From: a virus
Taxonomy: Duplodnaviria; Caudoviricetes
Virus record (IMG/VR): IMGVR_UViG_3300020477_000013
Location: 1-64,000 of that record
Reading direction: 5' to 3' (one strand)
Length of the DNA: 64,000 nucleotides
The notes beneath the pieces were generated by a model that saw only the letters and a program-made list of their open reading frames with translations, ran no database searches and had not been told where the DNA came from. Made by a program: the position numbers and the translations under genes. Each line of letters begins with the position of its first letter. Position 1 is the stretch's first letter. Positions 35,707 through 41,231 of this stretch are shown here, piece by piece.

Positions 35707-37638
35707 ATGGCTAAGAATTTTTCACTAAATCAATTGACGGAGGGCATTCGCCAGCGCCACCTCGGTGCTCAGAACCGTCGTCTCGTTGATAAGTGGTCCC
35801 GTACCGGTCTTCTTCGTGGTTTGGATGGCGTTTCTAGAGAGAACATGTCCAGGCTTCTTGAGAATCAGGCTGGCCAGGTCCTTCGCGAGGCAAATTCACT
35901 TTCAACTGGTGGAGGAAACGTTTCGTCTTCCGGAGACCTTCGAGGCTTTAGCAATATTGCTTTCCCCCTCGTTCGTCGCGTTTTCGGCGGGCTCGTTGCG
36001 AATGAGCTAGTCTCCATCCAGCCAATGAGCCTTCCTTCCGGACTGCTCTTCTACTTGGATTACACATATGGCACCCAGGTTGGCGGCGGCGGCGGCCCCG
36101 GTAATAACAGTGCGGCATACATGTCGGGTACATCCATTTATAACCAGCCCGTTGGTAAGGGCGTAAGGTCAGGTTCACTGGGTATCGGTGGACAGTATAA
36201 CCTTGCTGGTTCGGGTTACTCACGTGTTAACGTAAGCACCGCAAAGGCCCTAGGTTATGGTGCCCTACACGCTTCTGGTGCCTACCAGGGCAACTCTTCG
36301 CTCCAGACGAACAGCAACGATGGTGTCTTCATGCACGCTACAGGTACTGATGGAAAGAACCTCCAGTTCGATCCACAGCTTGTTAATCTCATTGAAGATA
36401 CTCCGGCTGCAATTAATTCTGGTGCTACTTACTTGACGGTTGTTCTTAAGACAGCTGACATGACAGGTTCCGGAGACCAGAAGGGTGATCTTACACTTGC
36501 TAAGGAGTTTGCACTCTACGCGACTAATACAGAGACACTCCCGAATGGTCTTGCAACGATAAGCACCTCTGGTGCTAACGCTGTACAGTCTGGCCAGAAT
36601 CTTTTCAATGTTAGAAGGCTCACACAGGTTGGTGAGTGGGATGGCACAAGCTTTACCCCGAACCCACTTGTTGATAGGGACGCCTCAAATGGCGCTGTTC
36701 TTCTTATTTGCTCTGGTAACGGTCATGACACTTCCGACATGGACAGGGTTAGCCTTAGCTTCCCCCTTGATCCGGTCTTAAGCGCTGGTAGCGATGCTGA
36801 CAGCTTGACAATTCCGACATTTGAGTCTAACTTTGGCACTGATCCTTCTCCGGAGATTCCTGAGATTGATATTAAGGTTGAGTCAATTGCTGTTACCGCC
36901 GTTACACGTAAGTTACGTGCTCGCTGGTCACCAGAATTGGCACAGGATCTCAATGCTTACCACAGCCTTGACGCCGAGGTGGAGCTAACCCAGATTCTTT
37001 CTGAGCAAATTGCTCTAGAGATTGATAGGGAGATCTTGAATGACCTTCTTACCCAGGCAGCAACGACCCGTTACTGGTCACGCGCACCTGGTAAGTTTGT
37101 CAATCGTGAGACTGGTGCTGAGGTCAGCAAGTCTGATTCTCTTGCTCCTGGACCTGCTTTCACCGGTACGGTTCGAGAGTGGTATGAGACTCTTGTCGAG
37201 ACAGTCATTGATGTTGCCAATGAGATTCACAGGTTAACGCTTCGTGGGTCGGCTAACTTCGTTGTGGTTTCACCTGATGTTGCTACTATCCTCGAGGCCT
37301 CGGTCCTTTACAGGCCTGCTTACACCCTCGATGGTGATGGCCAGGTTGGTTCACCGTTCTCACTTGGTGCTGAGAAGGTTGGTACTCTTAGCAACCGCTT
37401 CACAGTCTACAAGGACCCTTACTTCCCACGGAACAAGGTCCTCGTTGGATACAAGGGCGGAAGCTATCTTGAGACTGGCTATGTCTATGCCCCGTATGTA
37501 CCCCTGATTGTTACTCCGACGATCTTTGCTCCTGAGGATTTCACCCCGCGTAAGGGTGTTATGACTCGCTACGGAAAGAAGATGGTTCGCAGCGACTTCT
37601 ATGGTACTGTTACGGTACTTGACCTCAACATCATCTAA
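35707..37638 (+). CDS. gp23: Major capsid protein (T4 gp23-like)
   Basis: FPLVRRVFGGLVANELVSIQPMSLPSGLLFYLDY, TRKLRARWSPELAQDLNAYHSLDAEVELT.ILSEQIALEIDREI, GYVYAPYVPL, KGVMTRYG. Confidence 0.97.
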   Translation: MAKNFSLNQLTEGIRQRHLGAQNRRLVDKWSRTGLLRGLDGVSRENMSRLLENQAGQVLREANSLSTGGGNVSSSGDLRGFSNIAFPLVRRVFGGLVANELVSIQPMSLPSGLLFYLDYTYGTQVGGGGGPGNNSAAYMSGTSIYNQPVGKGVRSGSLGIGGQYNLAGSGYSRVNVSTAKALGYGALHASGAYQGNSSLQTNSNDGVFMHATGTDGKNLQFDPQLVNLIEDTPAAINSGATYLTVVLKTADMTGSGDQKGDLTLAKEFALYATNTETLPNGLATISTSGANAVQSGQNLFNVRRLTQVGEWDGTSFTPNPLVDRDASNGAVLLICSGNGHDTSDMDRVSLSFPLDPVLSAGSDADSLTIPTFESNFGTDPSPEIPEIDIKVESIAVTAVTRKLRARWSPELAQDLNAYHSLDAEVELTQILSEQIALEIDREILNDLLTQAATTRYWSRAPGKFVNRETGAEVSKSDSLAPGPAFTGTVREWYETLVETVIDVANEIHRLTLRGSANFVVVSPDVATILEASVLYRPAYTLDGDGQVGSPFSLGAEKVGTLSNRFTVYKDPYFPRNKVLVGYKGGSYLETGYVYAPYVPLIVTPTIFAPEDFTPRKGVMTRYGKKMVRSDFYGTVTVLDLNII

Positions 37639-37662: not shown

Positions 37663-37700
37663 AAAGGGCACCCTTTTTTGGGGTGCCCTTTTTTTATTTT
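37663..37700 (+). terminator. Rho-independent terminator after MCP
   Basis: Perfect 11-bp stem AAAGGGCACCC / GGGTGCCCTTT with a 7-nt loop, followed by a T tract. Confidence 0.9.
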
Positions 37701-37742: not shown

Positions 37743-37760
37743 GAATTTTGGAGATAAGAG

Positions 37761-38078
37761 ATGCCATCATCTGTGAGAAAGTCTACTAAAGAGAAAGCAG
37801 CCTTAAAAAAGTCCGTTACACCAAAGAGTGTTAGTACTCCAAAGAAGTCGGCAACAAAGAAGGCGGTCACTAGAAAAAAAGCACCTGTGGCTCCACCACA
37901 ATCAACTCCAACAAAGACTACCAGCGCTAATAATACAACAGCTGCTTTAGAGAAAAGAATTGAGGTTCTTGAATCGAGGCTTACAACGCTTGTAAATGCT
38001 CTTCATACTGAGTTTAAGAGAGATATGAGAAAAGGCCCTCGAGGGGTTGCTAAGAGTATCGAGTCACTGCTCTCGTAA
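37761..38078 (+). CDS. Lys/Ala/Thr/Pro-rich basic protein with C-terminal coiled coil (histone H1-like composition)
   Basis: KKSVTPKSVSTPKKSATKKAVTRKKAP tract followed by ALEKRIEVLESRLTTLVNAL. GGAG SD. Confidence 0.7.
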   Translation: MPSSVRKSTKEKAALKKSVTPKSVSTPKKSATKKAVTRKKAPVAPPQSTPTKTTSANNTTAALEKRIEVLESRLTTLVNALHTEFKRDMRKGPRGVAKSIESLLS

Positions 38079-38110
38079 TGTCATTTTAGGCTGCTTTATT
38101 CTACAGTATA

Positions 38111-38117
38111 ATATTTA
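38111..38117 (+). promoter_or_regulatory. Putative late promoter motif ATATTTA
   Basis: 5 nt before the PAS gene ATG. Confidence 0.45.
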
Positions 38118-38122
38118 TCTGT

Positions 38123-38692
38123 ATGGATAAACCTAGTACCACTGGTAGCAATAGGAGTGATAGTTTACAAAAACTACACAAGCTATGTACTGAGCTGAAT
38201 GACAGAGATGATCAGCTTAAAAAAGATATTAATTTATTCGAGAGCTTTTTTACTAATTTTCCAGTCCCAGTAACAATGTGGTCGATAGGTAAAGATCATA
38301 CTGTTTTGTCTAAGAGAGGAAATGCTTTTACATGTGAAGAGGCCTCCACCTTAGATGATATCTTTAAGTGCCCGATTATCCGGGAACAATCAATAAAGAA
38401 ACATGAGCTCGCGCTGGAGGGAGACATAGTATCTTATTTTGTTGCTCACTCTAGCCATGTCTATTGGACTCGCCTGATCCCTAAGAAAAATAATGATGGT
38501 TCTATTGCCGGTGTTGTAGGAATTGCATGGGATGTTACATCGAATGCTATTATGTTATCTTCTCTAGAGAATGTAGTAGAGATGATAGAATCCGGTGAGT
38601 CGTTAGATGATATTAAACAGGAAGCGATGAGAGGAGTATCCAGTAGTCGCCTCAAGGCCCTTTTAGAGGATGAGGAGTCAATTGGTGGGTGA
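38123..38692 (+). CDS. Stand-alone PAS/PAC-domain protein
   Basis: LFESFFTNFPVPVTMW (PAS start), HELALEG (helical connector), YWTRLIPKKNNDGSIAGVVGIAWDVT (PAC motif ending DVT). Confidence 0.75.
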   Translation: MDKPSTTGSNRSDSLQKLHKLCTELNDRDDQLKKDINLFESFFTNFPVPVTMWSIGKDHTVLSKRGNAFTCEEASTLDDIFKCPIIREQSIKKHELALEGDIVSYFVAHSSHVYWTRLIPKKNNDGSIAGVVGIAWDVTSNAIMLSSLENVVEMIESGESLDDIKQEAMRGVSSSRLKALLEDEESIGG

Positions 38693-39011
38693 AGGAAACC
38701 AAAATGGATGGAATGAATATTCCAGACTTGTCTTAAAAGAGCTTGAAACCCTTGCAGATTCTATTGCAGGTTTAAGGTCTGAGCTACAAGAGGTGAAACA
38801 AGAGCTAGCCAAGATGCATGCTAGGGAAGATAAAGTAGACGAGCTTAAGCAGTGGAAAGAGAGGCTTGATGAGGTCTGTTCACCCCCTCAACTAAAAGAG
38901 CTAATAACGGAAGTCGAGAACCTAAAGACTTTTAAGACTAAGGCTATAGCATTTTTTACAGCAGCCCAGATCGCCACTGCACTTTTTGCATGGGCTGTAA
39001 ATTTCTTTTAA
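38685..39011 (+). CDS. Coiled-coil protein with C-terminal membrane anchor
   Basis: Heptad-rich body, then hydrophobic AIAFFTAAQIATALFAWAVNFF. GAGGAG SD favours GTG at 38685 over ATG 38670. Confidence 0.65.
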   Translation: MGEGNQNGWNEYSRLVLKELETLADSIAGLRSELQEVKQELAKMHAREDKVDELKQWKERLDEVCSPPQLKELITEVENLKTFKTKAIAFFTAAQIATALFAWAVNFF

Positions 39012-39060
39012 TTTCATCTGCATGTTGTTTTTTGGTTGTCATTGATCCTATTTATCGGTA

Positions 39061-39120
39061 GGCCCGGTCCAAATAATCACCTGACACCCGCAGGGGATCG
39101 GAATCATCGGGAGCAAGGAG
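39061..39120 (+). ncRNA. Candidate structured 5' leader RNA
   Basis: GC-rich island. CCGGTCC(39064-70) pairs with GGATCGG(39095-101); inner CCTG/CAGG hairpin. Lies between a CTATTTA motif and the AAGGAG SD. Confidence 0.35.
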
Positions 39121-39127
39121 AAAGATT

Positions 39128-39520
39128 ATGCCAAAAGTAGCCTATACAACAAAAAAGGGCCTCGTTCAATCAGGCGGTGGTGGATTCGTTAACGGATATT
39201 TCCAATCAGGTGGTAGTACTACATCAGCTGCCGATTCACTCGCGATTCCCGTAACCCACAGTGTGGTGGCAAAAACAACAGGCGGCGATGCTGAGACCCT
39301 AACACTAGCAAACGGCCAACCCGGACAAGTGTTAACCATTTATATTGCAACAGATGGTGGGGGCGACGGAACGCTGTCTGCGACCACGATGACCGGCTGG
39401 GCGACCATAGTTTTTGCTGACGCCGGTGATCGCGCAGTTCTTCAATATATCGATGATACTATCGGATGGATTATCCTTGGCCTTTCTGGTGTTGCTGGCC
39501 CTCCAGTAACAACTGTATAA
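39128..39520 (+). CDS. Small beta-rich virion decoration/fibre-like protein, paralog 1
   Basis: 130 aa with AAGGAG SD. MPK..YT..KGLVQS N-terminus. Strongly similar to 39540..39920. Confidence 0.6.
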   Translation: MPKVAYTTKKGLVQSGGGGFVNGYFQSGGSTTSAADSLAIPVTHSVVAKTTGGDAETLTLANGQPGQVLTIYIATDGGGDGTLSATTMTGWATIVFADAGDRAVLQYIDDTIGWIILGLSGVAGPPVTTV

Positions 39521-39539
39521 TAGATAAGGGAGAAAGATC

Positions 39540-39920
39540 ATGCCAAAAATGACCTATACGACCTCGAAAGGTCTAGTTCAATCAAGGGGCTCCGGCGCTC
39601 AAAATTTGTACTACATGAATCCAGGAAGCACAACAGGCTCAGGTGCTGGTGCAGTTCCAATCACACATGCATATGTTGCGATGACAGCCGGTGGAACCGT
39701 TGCCTGGACTATTGCCGATGGACTTCCTGGCCAGGTCCTACAAATTTACTCAGTAGATGCAAATACGGGAACACTTACACCCGACACCTCAACAGGTTGG
39801 GCAACGATCGTGTTTACCGACATCGGTGATCGCGCAGTTCTTCAATATATTGATGATACTATCGGGTGGATAATTCTGAGCCTTAGTGGCGTCTCGGCGC
39901 CACCGACTTCAACAGTTTAA
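39540..39920 (+). CDS. Small beta-rich virion decoration/fibre-like protein, paralog 2
   Basis: 126 aa. Shares TGWATIVF.D.GDRAVLQYIDDTIGWIIL with paralog 1. Confidence 0.6.
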   Translation: MPKMTYTTSKGLVQSRGSGAQNLYYMNPGSTTGSGAGAVPITHAYVAMTAGGTVAWTIADGLPGQVLQIYSVDANTGTLTPDTSTGWATIVFTDIGDRAVLQYIDDTIGWIILSLSGVSAPPTSTV

Positions 39921-39944
39921 TATTCGTTGTCTGATGTCCTTAAT

Positions 39945-39979
39945 AGTCCCCTTCCTTCTGGTTGGGGGCTTTTTTTATT
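39945..39979 (+). terminator. Rho-independent terminator
   Basis: AGTCCCC / GGGGGCT stem followed by a T7 tract. Confidence 0.7.
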
Positions 39980-40064
39980 CTTTGCTTGTTATGGTAATTC
40001 ATCATTTTTACTTTAAGAATCGTATACGTACAATAATTATAGCATAACATAAGTGAGATAGAAG

Positions 40065-41231
40065 ATGCCATCTACTGTTAGAAGATCATTGGGGAAAAAA
40101 CCTCCCGAAAAGAAATCTCACAAAAAAGATGAAATAGGAAAGGTTGATATGGTACCTGAGAATGAAAAAGATGATGTATACATCAATACTGATGTTGCTG
40201 GTGACGATTTTGATTTTGTAGAAGCGTATGATGATGATCCTGCTGAGCTTGATGAGAGATTGCTGCCTGATAATACTGCACCTAGCGCAATTTCATGTGG
40301 ATTTCTTGGTATTGGAGGGGGCGGCGGAAAACTCGCCAAGGCATTTATTGACCTAGGCTTTAATAAGACGCTGCTCGTAAATACAACGGCAAAAGACCAA
40401 CCAGGTGGAGTGGATCCCCAGCATTTCTTGCTGGTACCCGGTGCGGATGGGGTAGGTAAGGACATCGAACTTGGCAAGAAGGTCTTAGGTGAACAAAGCG
40501 CTATGGTAGAAGATGCTGTGCGTACCAGGATAGGGACCGTAGATTGGCTCTTTGTCTTGGCCGGCGGCGGGGGCGGCACCGGTAGCGCATGTCATGAGTT
40601 GCATGGTTCCCTGAGTAGATACCTTCAATCCATAGAGTCAGTTGGGAAAGTCGTATATATCGTTACAAAGCCAACTGCTCAAGAGTTGTTAAACCCAACA
40701 ATCTCTAAGAATTATAGCTCGCTGTCTAAGGATGTGGCTGATCACCCTCATATCATCATAGATAATGAGAAACAGCTACAGTTGCTCAGGGGAAAGGTGG
40801 GAATGCTAAATATGTTCCCATCTGCAAATAAGAATTTTGCAAAACTACTATGGCAGGTGCTAAAGCTAGCTTCTGAGCATTCCCCCGTACAGACTTTCGA
40901 CTCTAAGGATTTAGAGCGATGTCTTTCCTGTGATGGCAGGATCGTGTTAGGGAGTACTGTCGTTAGGGATGTAGATAGGAATGACCTAGGATCAATAGTA
41001 TTTCAGGGATGTTTACGATCATCTCCATGCCCTACGCCCAAGGGTTCTACAAAGACTGGTGTTTTACTTCTAGTCGTGGATAATGATATGGCTTCTGACC
41101 CCGACGTCAGCCGCCGTCTAGAATCTGCATTTTCATATGTTGGCGGCCGGGCGGAGACATTATTTTCTGGTGTTTATGTTAAGGAAGGTATACCTGGGCT
41201 AATCGCCATAACCATGCTGGGCGGGTTGTAA
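40065..41231 (+). CDS. FtsZ/tubulin-family GTPase (TubZ/PhuZ/CetZ-like)
   Basis: GFLGIGGGGGKLAK (T1), VNTT.KD, GADGVGKD..LG, AGGGGGTGSA (signature loop), IIIDNE, NKNF, TFDSKD (T7-like). Confidence 0.9.
   Translation: MPSTVRRSLGKKPPEKKSHKKDEIGKVDMVPENEKDDVYINTDVAGDDFDFVEAYDDDPAELDERLLPDNTAPSAISCGFLGIGGGGGKLAKAFIDLGFNKTLLVNTTAKDQPGGVDPQHFLLVPGADGVGKDIELGKKVLGEQSAMVEDAVRTRIGTVDWLFVLAGGGGGTGSACHELHGSLSRYLQSIESVGKVVYIVTKPTAQELLNPTISKNYSSLSKDVADHPHIIIDNEKQLQLLRGKVGMLNMFPSANKNFAKLLWQVLKLASEHSPVQTFDSKDLERCLSCDGRIVLGSTVVRDVDRNDLGSIVFQGCLRSSPCPTPKGSTKTGVLLLVVDNDMASDPDVSRRLESAFSYVGGRAETLFSGVYVKEGIPGLIAITMLGGL

Follow-up and report, generated by a model that had tools for sequence, protein, structure and literature searches.

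The 64,000-nucleotide stretch of DNA analysed here, hereafter the window, comes from an uncultured marine giant phage of the T4 type and carries a gp23-type major capsid gene at positions 35707-37638 (Pfam Gp23, 9.6e-77), which is followed on the plus strand by an intrinsic terminator with a 12-bp stem, 7 G-C pairs and a subsequent T run (37663-37691). The next gene (37761-38078, plus strand) encodes a protein of 105 amino acids. Farther downstream, a hairpin search detected a weaker terminator-like structure (39951-39968, plus strand) 5' of the gene for a 388-aa FtsZ/TubZ-like GTPase (40065-41231, plus strand), and both genes are, as the initial annotation had it, the first ones after a terminator-like hairpin. 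The four open reading frames between them (38123-39920, plus strand) code for a 189-aa protein, which matched no family in Pfam, PHROG or NCBIfam, a 113-aa coiled-coil protein and the paralogues p130 and p126. Both genes fall within a gap that is bounded by the capsid gene on one side and by a gene for a 398-aa protein on the other.

The starts of the two genes resemble each other at the DNA level. The reported identity of 26 out of 33 nucleotides between 37751-37783 and 40055-40087 (both plus strand) could be reproduced, as could the common N-terminus MPS(S/T)VR(K/R)S of the encoded proteins and the Lys-rich tract that follows it in both of them. Each copy comprises the 10-nt Shine-Dalgarno (SD) spacer, the ATG and codons 2-8. 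The first copy has a GGAG at 37749-37752, read from the sequence 8 nt 5' of the ATG, with an anti-SD duplex energy of -6.4 kcal/mol, and the second one a weak GAGA (-5.5 kcal/mol). Searching with a degenerate pattern that fits both copies, and tolerating as many as 3 mismatches, yielded only these two sites in the 64-kb window and none in 100 shuffles, and among the real genes of the whole 201,585-bp record only these two start with M-P-S-[ST]-V. As an empirical null, start windows from -10 to +23 of 262 crude gene calls were compared in approximately 34,000 pairs; only 10 pairs reached at least 26/33, and the other nine belong to obvious leader or paralogue families. Chance does not account for the match.

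In a local comparison the similarity is limited to about -10 to +24, and past codon 8 homology lacks significance, with shuffle p values of 0.25 (residues) and 0.06 (bases). Upstream, the two genes are alike only in a promoter-like TA[T/A]TTATAG motif and in the repeat itself. Since 8 of the 10 non-coding bases match and the likeness stops after codon 8, copying of DNA fits better than convergence on a peptide. Moreover, the MPSSVRKS of the 105-aa protein is closest to the MPSTVRRS of the FtsZ-like protein in the same genome, while relatives have MAST.., MGSS.. and similar starts, and the bases upstream of the leader in their FtsZ-like genes differ from those found here. A point on the other side is that the seven mismatches among the 33 positions change residues only between S and T or K and R, and that three more codon differences within codons 1-8 are silent. 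These few sites give a hint of selection on the leader peptide in both genes.

Behind the eight copied residues, the 105-aa protein has a Lys/Pro/Thr-rich basic tract to approximately residue 56 and a short coiled coil at approximately residues 61-89. Its earlier description as a basic coiled-coil protein is justified, with 24 Lys and Arg against 7 Asp and Glu residues and a heptad pattern that can be read from the sequence at residues 63-85. Among approximately 5.8 billion protein clusters a single homologue was found, 90% identical to it. The two genes are separated by 8 synonymous and 11 non-synonymous codon differences, most of them within the basic tract, with one residue change in the coiled coil when the alignment is read by eye. 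Pfam, PHROG and NCBIfam searches assigned the protein to no family and, in particular, detected no winged-helix or other DNA-binding family. No homologue was found among the IMG/VR relatives, and the gene was not found in five large related phage records, which are incomplete metagenomic assemblies (one of them 92% complete). A tblastn search of 50,697 GenBank phage records with the 105-aa and the FtsZ-like protein gave no match for either, and the ESM Atlas contained no structural look-alikes of the 105-aa protein above chance (pLDDT of the Atlas model 0.46). The 105-aa gene is nearly an orphan and a novelty at strain level, and it is probably young and fast-evolving.

In the FtsZ/tubulin fold, the H7 helix connects a Rossmann-type GTPase domain to a C-terminal domain. 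The AlphaFold model of the 388-aa protein, built on a 123-sequence alignment (pLDDT 86, pTM 0.80), shows a two-domain core at approximately residues 75-386 and aligns over some 320-365 columns with CetZ, FtsZ and TubZ in Foldseek (CetZ 3zid, 2.5e-19, and Bacillus subtilis FtsZ, 3.3e-19, with target TM-scores of 0.66-0.78; then TubZ). The family profile matches FtsZ (1.5e-8) and TubZ of Clostridium phage c-st (4.5e-6) in the PDB. Residues 82-89, GIGGGGGK, correspond to the T1 loop (G-G-G-G-x-G), and residues 167-175, GGGGGTGSA, contain the T4 signature G-G-G-T-G-[ST]; both stretches are (near-)invariant in the 123 sequences. In this superfamily, acidic residues of the T7 loop complete the GTPase site of the next subunit; here D279 and D282 are invariant and align with the D-x-x-D of Staphylococcus aureus FtsZ. 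Further invariant residues include G84, G85, G87, G169, G171, G173 and S174. The fold of the 388-aa protein is thus of the FtsZ/CetZ/TubZ type, and the protein shares with FtsZ and CetZ the two domains, the G-rich T1 loop, the GGGTGS signature and the two aligned T7-loop Asp residues. With Pfam Tubulin (PF00091) it scores 23.8 bits; the gathering score is 33, which several family members exceed. A bona fide cell-division FtsZ can be rejected: the TIGR00065 equivalog score of 24.8 bits is far below the cut-off of 295.2, and just two residues follow the last strand of the model. That strand comprises residues 379-386 of 388, consistent with the initial annotation as a tail-less tubulin-like protein.

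Residues 1-44 of the FtsZ-like protein stay disordered in the model despite the deep alignment, and the leader forms the tip of this basic arm. Most family members begin with a conserved peptide of the approximate form M-A-S-x-x-W-S-L-x-G-K/R, which is followed by a disordered linker of variable length and an acidic DDFDF motif; in our sequence the corresponding acidic-aromatic motif DDFDFVEAYDDDP at residues 47-59 (40203-40241, plus strand) is (near-)invariant across the 123 sequences, and most of the distant members are headed by related acidic motifs. The leader is kept in relatives: among the nearest 120 FtsZ-like homologues, no fewer than 80 show the consensus M-A-S-[TGS]-[TV]-W-[SN]-L-Y-G-[KR], or approximately 100 if non-matching N-termini (near-variants, non-ATG starts) are read by eye. 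Its Ser codons alternate between TCN and AGY among the relatives, it is retained even behind TTG starts, and its best-conserved positions after Ser3 form a Trp/Leu/Gly block. The leader is a real peptide under selection and was already present in the ancestor of the FtsZ-like family. In one distant member such a leader is fused to approximately 180 residues of histone-H1-like repeats.

Furthermore, the gene contains a second likely start. An SD-like AGGAAAGG precedes the in-frame ATG of Met29 (40136-40151, plus strand), and a Met occupies this alignment position in 113 of the 123 sequences of the family. An SD-like purine run lies 5' of the equivalent Met at 10/10 loci examined, and at 9/10 the anti-SD duplex is stronger there than at the first start. 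In four lineages the protein starts near the internal Met, without arm and leader. Since the better SD belongs to the internal start at this conserved Met29, the gene probably gives rise to a minor long form with the arm and a major short form.

The neighbourhood of the two genes is highly variable. The stretch from the capsid gene to the 398-aa gene is filled differently in each lineage compared, where all related records are incomplete metagenomic assemblies. In G003, the closest relative by head genes, the same intervening genes occur in changed order (three p130-like genes, the 189-aa homologue and p113), and both the 105-aa and the FtsZ-like gene are absent from the gap. In G001 and G005 the gap holds another gene, of 106 aa, which in G001 follows the capsid gene; comparison of its G001 product with the 105-aa protein gave a shuffle p of ~0.01-0.02 and an hhalign probability of 32% over 17 coiled-coil columns only. 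The gap of G002 is empty. The FtsZ-like gene follows immediately behind the capsid terminator in L010 and L015 and is far from the head genes in many relatives; altogether three genomic contexts of this gene were found, and they share no neighbour. An Hc1-like 65-aa gene, which precedes the FtsZ-like gene in one of these contexts, was considered as a partner and rejected, as it is unlinked to the FtsZ-like gene in G001 and G002, missing from this record and not Lys-rich. Judged by capsid (74% identity) and 398-aa gene (80%), G003 is the closest relative, with 69% identity in the FtsZ-like gene, whereas in G002 the FtsZ-like gene is 80% identical against 63% for both capsid and 398-aa gene. These discordant histories imply that the FtsZ-like gene travels as a cassette.

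The initial annotation regarded the 105-aa protein as a partner of the tubulin-like protein. As a conserved arrangement this fails: apart from one near-identical relative the 105-aa gene is missing from the relatives, so it is not a conserved partner, and the co-occurrence of both genes, whose absence had been set beforehand as a refuting result, was looked for and not found in relatives. Hence, the two genes are not a conserved two-component cytoskeletal system. The proposal that the shared leader acts as a targeting signal has fared differently for the two proteins. The FtsZ-like family keeps the peptide, which there caps a disordered arm, the position that would be expected of a docking or targeting peptide in such a model, but the 105-aa copy comprises leader residues 1-8 only and lacks the conserved L-x-G-K part of the family.

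We consider it reasonably probable that the 33-nt repeat represents a lineage-specific partial duplication of the start of the FtsZ-like gene. In this reading the RBS-to-ATG spacer and the first eight codons were copied within the hypervariable, freely rearranged gap between the capsid and the 398-aa gene and now also head the 105-aa gene. The copied piece encodes the beginning of the conserved N-terminal peptide of the family; the arm leads into the invariant acidic motif, behind which lies a GTPase core apparently capable of polymerising. A scarce long isoform with the arm and an abundant short isoform from Met29 are most probably made, and the long form could serve as anchor or docking subunit in filaments in which the short form predominates. 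The 105-aa protein would have obtained a working start and eight arm residues, not the Leu-Gly-Lys part. At most it is a late addition, perhaps sharing the basic-peptide target of the FtsZ-like protein. The duplication, the conservation of the peptide, the fold, the missing co-occurrence and the internal start signal are direct results, whereas the two isoforms, the anchoring role and any function of the copied residues are inferred.

A possible, though unlikely, alternative is that the leader is a portable address tag. The eight residues would direct both proteins to the same site or partner, and a recent, lineage-specific two-part system would have arisen in which the coiled-coil protein, as a putative DNA binder, is recruited to the anchor of the long isoform. 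The conservation of the leader at the amino-acid level in the FtsZ-like family, the silent or conservative nature of the differences between the copies and the disorder of the arm, as usual for docking peptides, are consistent with such a role, and the basic tract behind both leaders may point to a functional link between leader and tract, for which the histone-H1-like fusion can be compared. However, the copy in the 105-aa protein is without the Trp/Leu/Gly block, and that protein has but a single near-identical relative. Moreover, a scan of public contigs for the pattern revealed no second leader on a non-FtsZ gene: the commonest variant gave 1 match in viral and 11 in metagenome contigs, four of them FtsZ-like and the rest short or GC-rich chance ORFs. 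The only near match in the whole records of the relatives is a five-residue coincidence with different codons, and two 'MASTS/MTSSI' matches in G002 were discarded as internal Met codons of long genes.

It is very unlikely that the two proteins form a conserved pair of filament and adaptor that bind each other directly, like TubZ and TubR. Both genes belong to the late region and have similar promoter-like motifs and terminators, and a small basic protein would be expected for a DNA-binding adaptor, but this reading conflicts with the lack of co-occurrence, of a constant neighbour in the three contexts and of a detectable DNA-binding family in the 105-aa protein, and four lineages are wholly without leader. 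A complex prediction with both proteins returned no answer (score 0.00, partner pLDDT 45) and speaks neither for nor against pairing. The TubZ-TubR-tubC partition system comprises a GTPase with a C-terminal tail, an adjacent gene for a small DNA-binding adaptor and a centromere. TubZ, known from plasmids and Clostridium phage c-st, is likewise a phage- or plasmid-borne member of the superfamily, and distant members of the FtsZ-like family match Pfam TubZ-like_C. Nevertheless, a partition system of this type was rejected, as our protein has no long C-terminal helix or tail able to bind TubR, no adjacent small DNA-binding gene is kept across the three contexts, and the 105-aa protein is missing from relatives.

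Highly improbable, too, is a shared translation-initiation region, i.e. an RNA-level repeat through which one regulator or structure controls both late genes. The repeat covers spacer and start codon, and both copies can form a small hairpin over the AUG, but these folds are no stabler than those of shuffled sequences (z = +0.37 and -0.51; between -0.51 and +1.0 when the starts of three relatives are included) and are not conserved in relatives, which keep the peptide and not the bases. A search for a RegA-type repressor gave no match in the record and none in the control genomes either and is hence uninformative.

T4-type capsid-targeting leaders on cargo proteins end in a Leu/Ile-x-Glu site of the head protease, and a third capsid-loading leader, by which both proteins would enter the head like the products of the genome's two large leader families (MKITKRQLRRII and MKLLREYIRSLL), is extremely improbable: dozens of genes in this genome have shared N-terminal leaders, copied as gene starts at the DNA level onto otherwise unrelated proteins as in T4, and both our genes lie beside head genes, but here there are only two carriers with another sequence type and no protease motif after the leader, the L-D-E at residues 62-64 as the only Leu/Ile-x-Glu site of the FtsZ-like arm is not conserved, and the large family of one carrier keeps the peptide wherever its gene sits, often distant from the head genes.

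The conserved C-terminal peptide of FtsZ binds FtsA or ZipA. The phage protein possesses neither this peptide nor the C-terminal linker; unlike in FtsZ and CetZ, a variable linker and a conserved terminal peptide are found at its N-terminus, and it is encoded by a phage among late genes. PhuZ of the nucleus-forming jumbo phages is a tubulin-like GTPase of phages as well. In these PhiKZ-type phages its filament contacts depend on an acidic tail at the C-terminus, of which the acidic aromatic motif outside the core here is reminiscent. However, the acidic motif of the FtsZ-like family is N-terminal, and an identity with PhuZ was rejected, given the missing C-terminal tail, the T4 gp23-type instead of PhiKZ-type capsid and the weaker structural match (query TM-score 0.48 versus 0.62-0.70 for 'FtsZ' entries of uncultured phages).

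The FtsZ-like family is very abundant in marine metagenomes, with at least 998 clusters at 90% identity (E <=1e-20) and 954 representatives at 50% identity (E <=0.001). A survey of marine jumbo phages found tubulin homologues confined to PhiKZ-like groups (PMC9123017), a paper on jumbo-phage genomics treats only PhuZ- and TubZ-type proteins (PMC7824862), and neither of the two describes such a family in T4-type phages, for which it is apparently new to the literature. Its layout of terminal peptide, variable linker, acidic motif and core corresponds to FtsZ mirrored end for end, and the conserved internal start suggests that filament and anchor subunits could be obtained from one gene. It is conceivable, albeit decidedly doubtful, that the family has shifted its partner-binding peptide to the N-terminus and makes it only on the scarce long isoform, and that this peptide, as a portable address tag, was copied in one lineage onto a histone-H1-like coiled-coil protein, bringing a DNA binder to the anchor point of the filament; if true, address tag and long isoform together would form a novel type of positioning system for the late stage of phage infection. 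In our preferred reading as a partial duplication, the copied start would provide an example of how a new phage gene gains a working start from its neighbour.

The 201,585-bp IMG/VR virus record, with an estimated completeness of 73%, carries nearly all of its genes on the plus strand, and a T4-type structural module is present in the window, which covers the first 64 kb of the record, with a 643-aa capsid protein at 35707-37638 (Pfam Gp23 match, 9.6e-77). The initial annotation reported a 33-nt repeat at the starts of a 105-aa basic coiled-coil gene (37761..38078, plus strand) and a 388-aa FtsZ/TubZ-like gene (40065..41231, plus strand). This repeat is real: the stretches 37751-37783 and 40055-40087 read as quoted and are identical at 26 of 33 positions, and each gene is indeed the first one 3' of a terminator-like hairpin. 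A degenerate pattern allowing up to three mismatches matched only these two sites and found nothing in 100 shuffles; likewise, only two real genes in the whole record start with M-P-S-[ST]-V. Among approximately 34,000 pairwise comparisons of gene-start windows, only 10 pairs reached at least 26/33, and the other nine all fall inside obvious leader or paralogue families. The similarity is limited to about -10 to +24, and past codon 8 of both genes it was tested and is not significant. The two proteins have only residues 1-8 in common (MPSSVRKS and MPSTVRRS), followed at residues 9-10 by Thr-Lys in the 105-aa and Leu-Gly in the FtsZ-like protein.

Pfam Tubulin matches the 388-aa protein with a score under the cut-off. 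A profile built from 14 homologues matches FtsZ at 1.5e-8 and also hits CetZ and the TubZ of phage c-st. The first structural model of the protein matched CetZ, FtsZ and TubZ across both domains with E-values down to 1e-19, and an AlphaFold model based on 123 sequences has a pLDDT of 86. Among the catalytic features, the T1 loop, the GGGTGS signature and the two Asp residues of the T7 loop are invariant. In the model the chain stops two residues past the last strand, so the protein is tail-less, as proposed. It is not a cell-division FtsZ, scoring 24.8 bits where the cut-off is 295. The closest entries in a viral structure library are uncultured-phage 'FtsZ' proteins, whereas PhuZ is more distant. 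The family comprises at least 998 clusters at 90% identity (E <= 1e-20), or 954 representatives at 50% identity (E <= 0.001), and among its distant members there are matches to Pfam Tubulin, Tubulin_2 and TubZ-like_C. A survey of marine jumbo phages reports tubulin from PhiKZ-like groups only (PMC9123017), and PhuZ- and TubZ-type proteins are the only ones treated by a jumbo-phage overview (PMC7824862).

The copied piece is part of an N-terminal peptide that is conserved in this phage family. The peptide, with the consensus M-A-S-[TGS]-[TV]-W-[SN]-L-Y-G-[KR], heads at least 80 of the 120 closest homologues, or approximately 100 of 120 if near-variants and non-ATG starts are included (non-matching N-termini read by eye). 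In the relatives' leaders, Ser is encoded now by TCN, now by AGY, and the codons for Ala and Thr are variable as well, so that selection acts on the peptide and not on the bases. The peptide is retained even behind a TTG start codon, as observed in two lineages (L001:6001 and L006:5950). Because gene callers then choose an internal Met, the N-termini of the family are inconsistent in database entries. The peptide is followed by a linker of very variable length and then by the invariant acidic DDFDFVEAYDDDP; this motif starts anywhere from residue 38 to 70 in the close set, and at approximately 92-95 in the loci L010 and L015; four lineages have neither peptide nor linker. One subclade's arm reads MGSSTYSLVGKKPPKPKK and that of the window phage MPSTVRRSLGKKPPEKK; these are plainly the same arm. 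Despite the deep alignment, residues 1-44 are disordered in the AlphaFold model.

The 105-aa protein has a much narrower distribution. No protein family matching it was found, and among approximately 5.8 billion protein clusters it has a single relative, 90% identical and encoded on a 983-bp contig; another contig from the same sample carries an FtsZ-like gene with 96% identity in unchanged gene order. Further material of this lineage comes from sample 3300002242 and from a 288-kb contig that encodes an identical FtsZ-like protein. The two 105-aa genes differ by 8 synonymous and 11 non-synonymous codons, with the replacements almost all in the Lys-rich tract and one residue change in the coiled coil (alignment read by eye), a pattern pointing to a real but fast-evolving gene. 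It was found neither in IMG/VR relatives, nor within 6 kb of any related FtsZ-like gene, nor in five large related records. Therefore, the suggestion that both proteins form a conserved two-component cytoskeletal system failed the co-occurrence test.

What lies in the gap between the capsid gene and the 398-aa gene changes from one examined lineage to the next. The FtsZ-like gene lies immediately 3' of the capsid terminator in L010 and L015; the gap of the related phage G003 holds three p130-like paralogues, a homologue of the 189-aa gene and p113, without the FtsZ-like and 105-aa genes; an unrelated-looking 106-aa Ser/Thr/Lys-rich coiled-coil gene occupies it in G001 and G005, and no genes are found there in G002. 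Elsewhere, the FtsZ-like gene is located 3' of a tRNA- or tmRNA-like gene (3' end read by eye) or in a third region, and no neighbour is common to all contexts. Moreover, G003 is 74% identical to the window in the capsid protein, 80% in the 398-aa gene and 69% in the FtsZ-like gene, G002 63%, 63% and 80%, respectively. These discordant histories indicate that the FtsZ-like gene moves as a cassette. In one conserved context, at L065:3176-5284 and its equivalents in L007, L008, L016 and L018, where the gene follows a likely tmRNA gene (3' end read), a 62-65-aa gene resembling the Hc1 N-terminal domain lies upstream of the tmRNA and a convergent 87-aa gene resembling sigma-70 region 4 downstream.

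Several small gene families were observed as well. The paralogues p130 (39128-39520) and p126 (39540-39920) share the start MPK..YTT.KGLVQS and, by eye, a similar 5' leader ending in GGAGCAAGGAGAAAGAT(T/C)ATG; three 160-aa paralogues with the same kind of leader lie directly 3' of the capsid gene in G003 (L061), and one is present in L015. All appear to belong to one variable family of small, late structural proteins. The post-capsid slot of G001 (L035:13222-13539) and G005 holds a different family (P0152-P0154), whose members open with a conserved MATAKTSSTRK, continue through a Ser/Thr tract that varies and a coiled coil, and close with a conserved RMGIRQHVISGLGI; build and length are as in the 105-aa protein, and at 32% in hhalign homology is not demonstrable. 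A 150-aa gene of G001 (225939, in L041), which has a promoter-like motif and a GGAG of its own, opens with MASTIS, sharing the first five residues with the FtsZ-like leader MASTILRSY of that phage in different codons, which is probably a coincidence. Beyond the window (about 82-89, 120, 146-160 and 190-198 kb), many genes have common N-terminal leaders (MKITKRQLRRII approximately 20, MKLLREYIRSLL approximately 7 and MKVGDLVKF several in the crude gene set).

The repeat takes in non-coding bases, the 105-aa leader is nearest to the FtsZ-like leader of its own genome, and the two copies border 2.3 kb of variable genes; all this points to a local duplication of the gene start while the hot spot was being rearranged, which would have supplied the 105-aa gene with a working start. 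Since the copies differ by 21%, the duplication predates the divergence from the 96-97% identical strain. The eight shared residues may still serve as an address tag. Where the two copies differ, the changes are silent or conservative, a basic tract follows the leader in both proteins, and one distant family member joins such a leader to approximately 180 residues of H1-like repeats; however, the 105-aa copy lacks the peptide's best-conserved part, and no second leader capture was found in the relatives' records and public contigs scanned. This distant member (P0093, 566 aa) consists of the leader MAGRTTSRTAKRS, tandem TATARKRTTTKAKAKP repeats and the FtsZ-like core, i.e. a histone-H1/AlgP-like arm fused to a GTPase. 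A capsid-loading tag is an unlikely explanation of the leader, which has only two carriers in the whole record, and RNA structure is an unlikely explanation of the repeat.

Within the otherwise variable linker of the FtsZ-like proteins, 113 of 123 sequences have Met in one column, which is Met29 (ATG at 40149) in the window protein. In each of the ten loci examined, the Glu/Lys codons 5' of this column spell a run resembling a Shine-Dalgarno site, and the predicted anti-SD duplex amounts to -5.5 to -9.3 kcal/mol at the internal Met compared to +0.2 to -6.1 at the first start; nine of the ten loci have the stronger duplex at the internal site, and in the window the two sites are equal. Furthermore, the leaderless lineages begin near the Met29 column, and most of the distant family members open with an acidic motif, 24-34 residues ahead of the core. 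From these start signals we infer that the gene would yield two products: a long form (about 388 residues) that carries the basic arm and is scarce, and a short form (about 360 residues) that is abundant. The FtsZ-like family hence probably has two isoforms.
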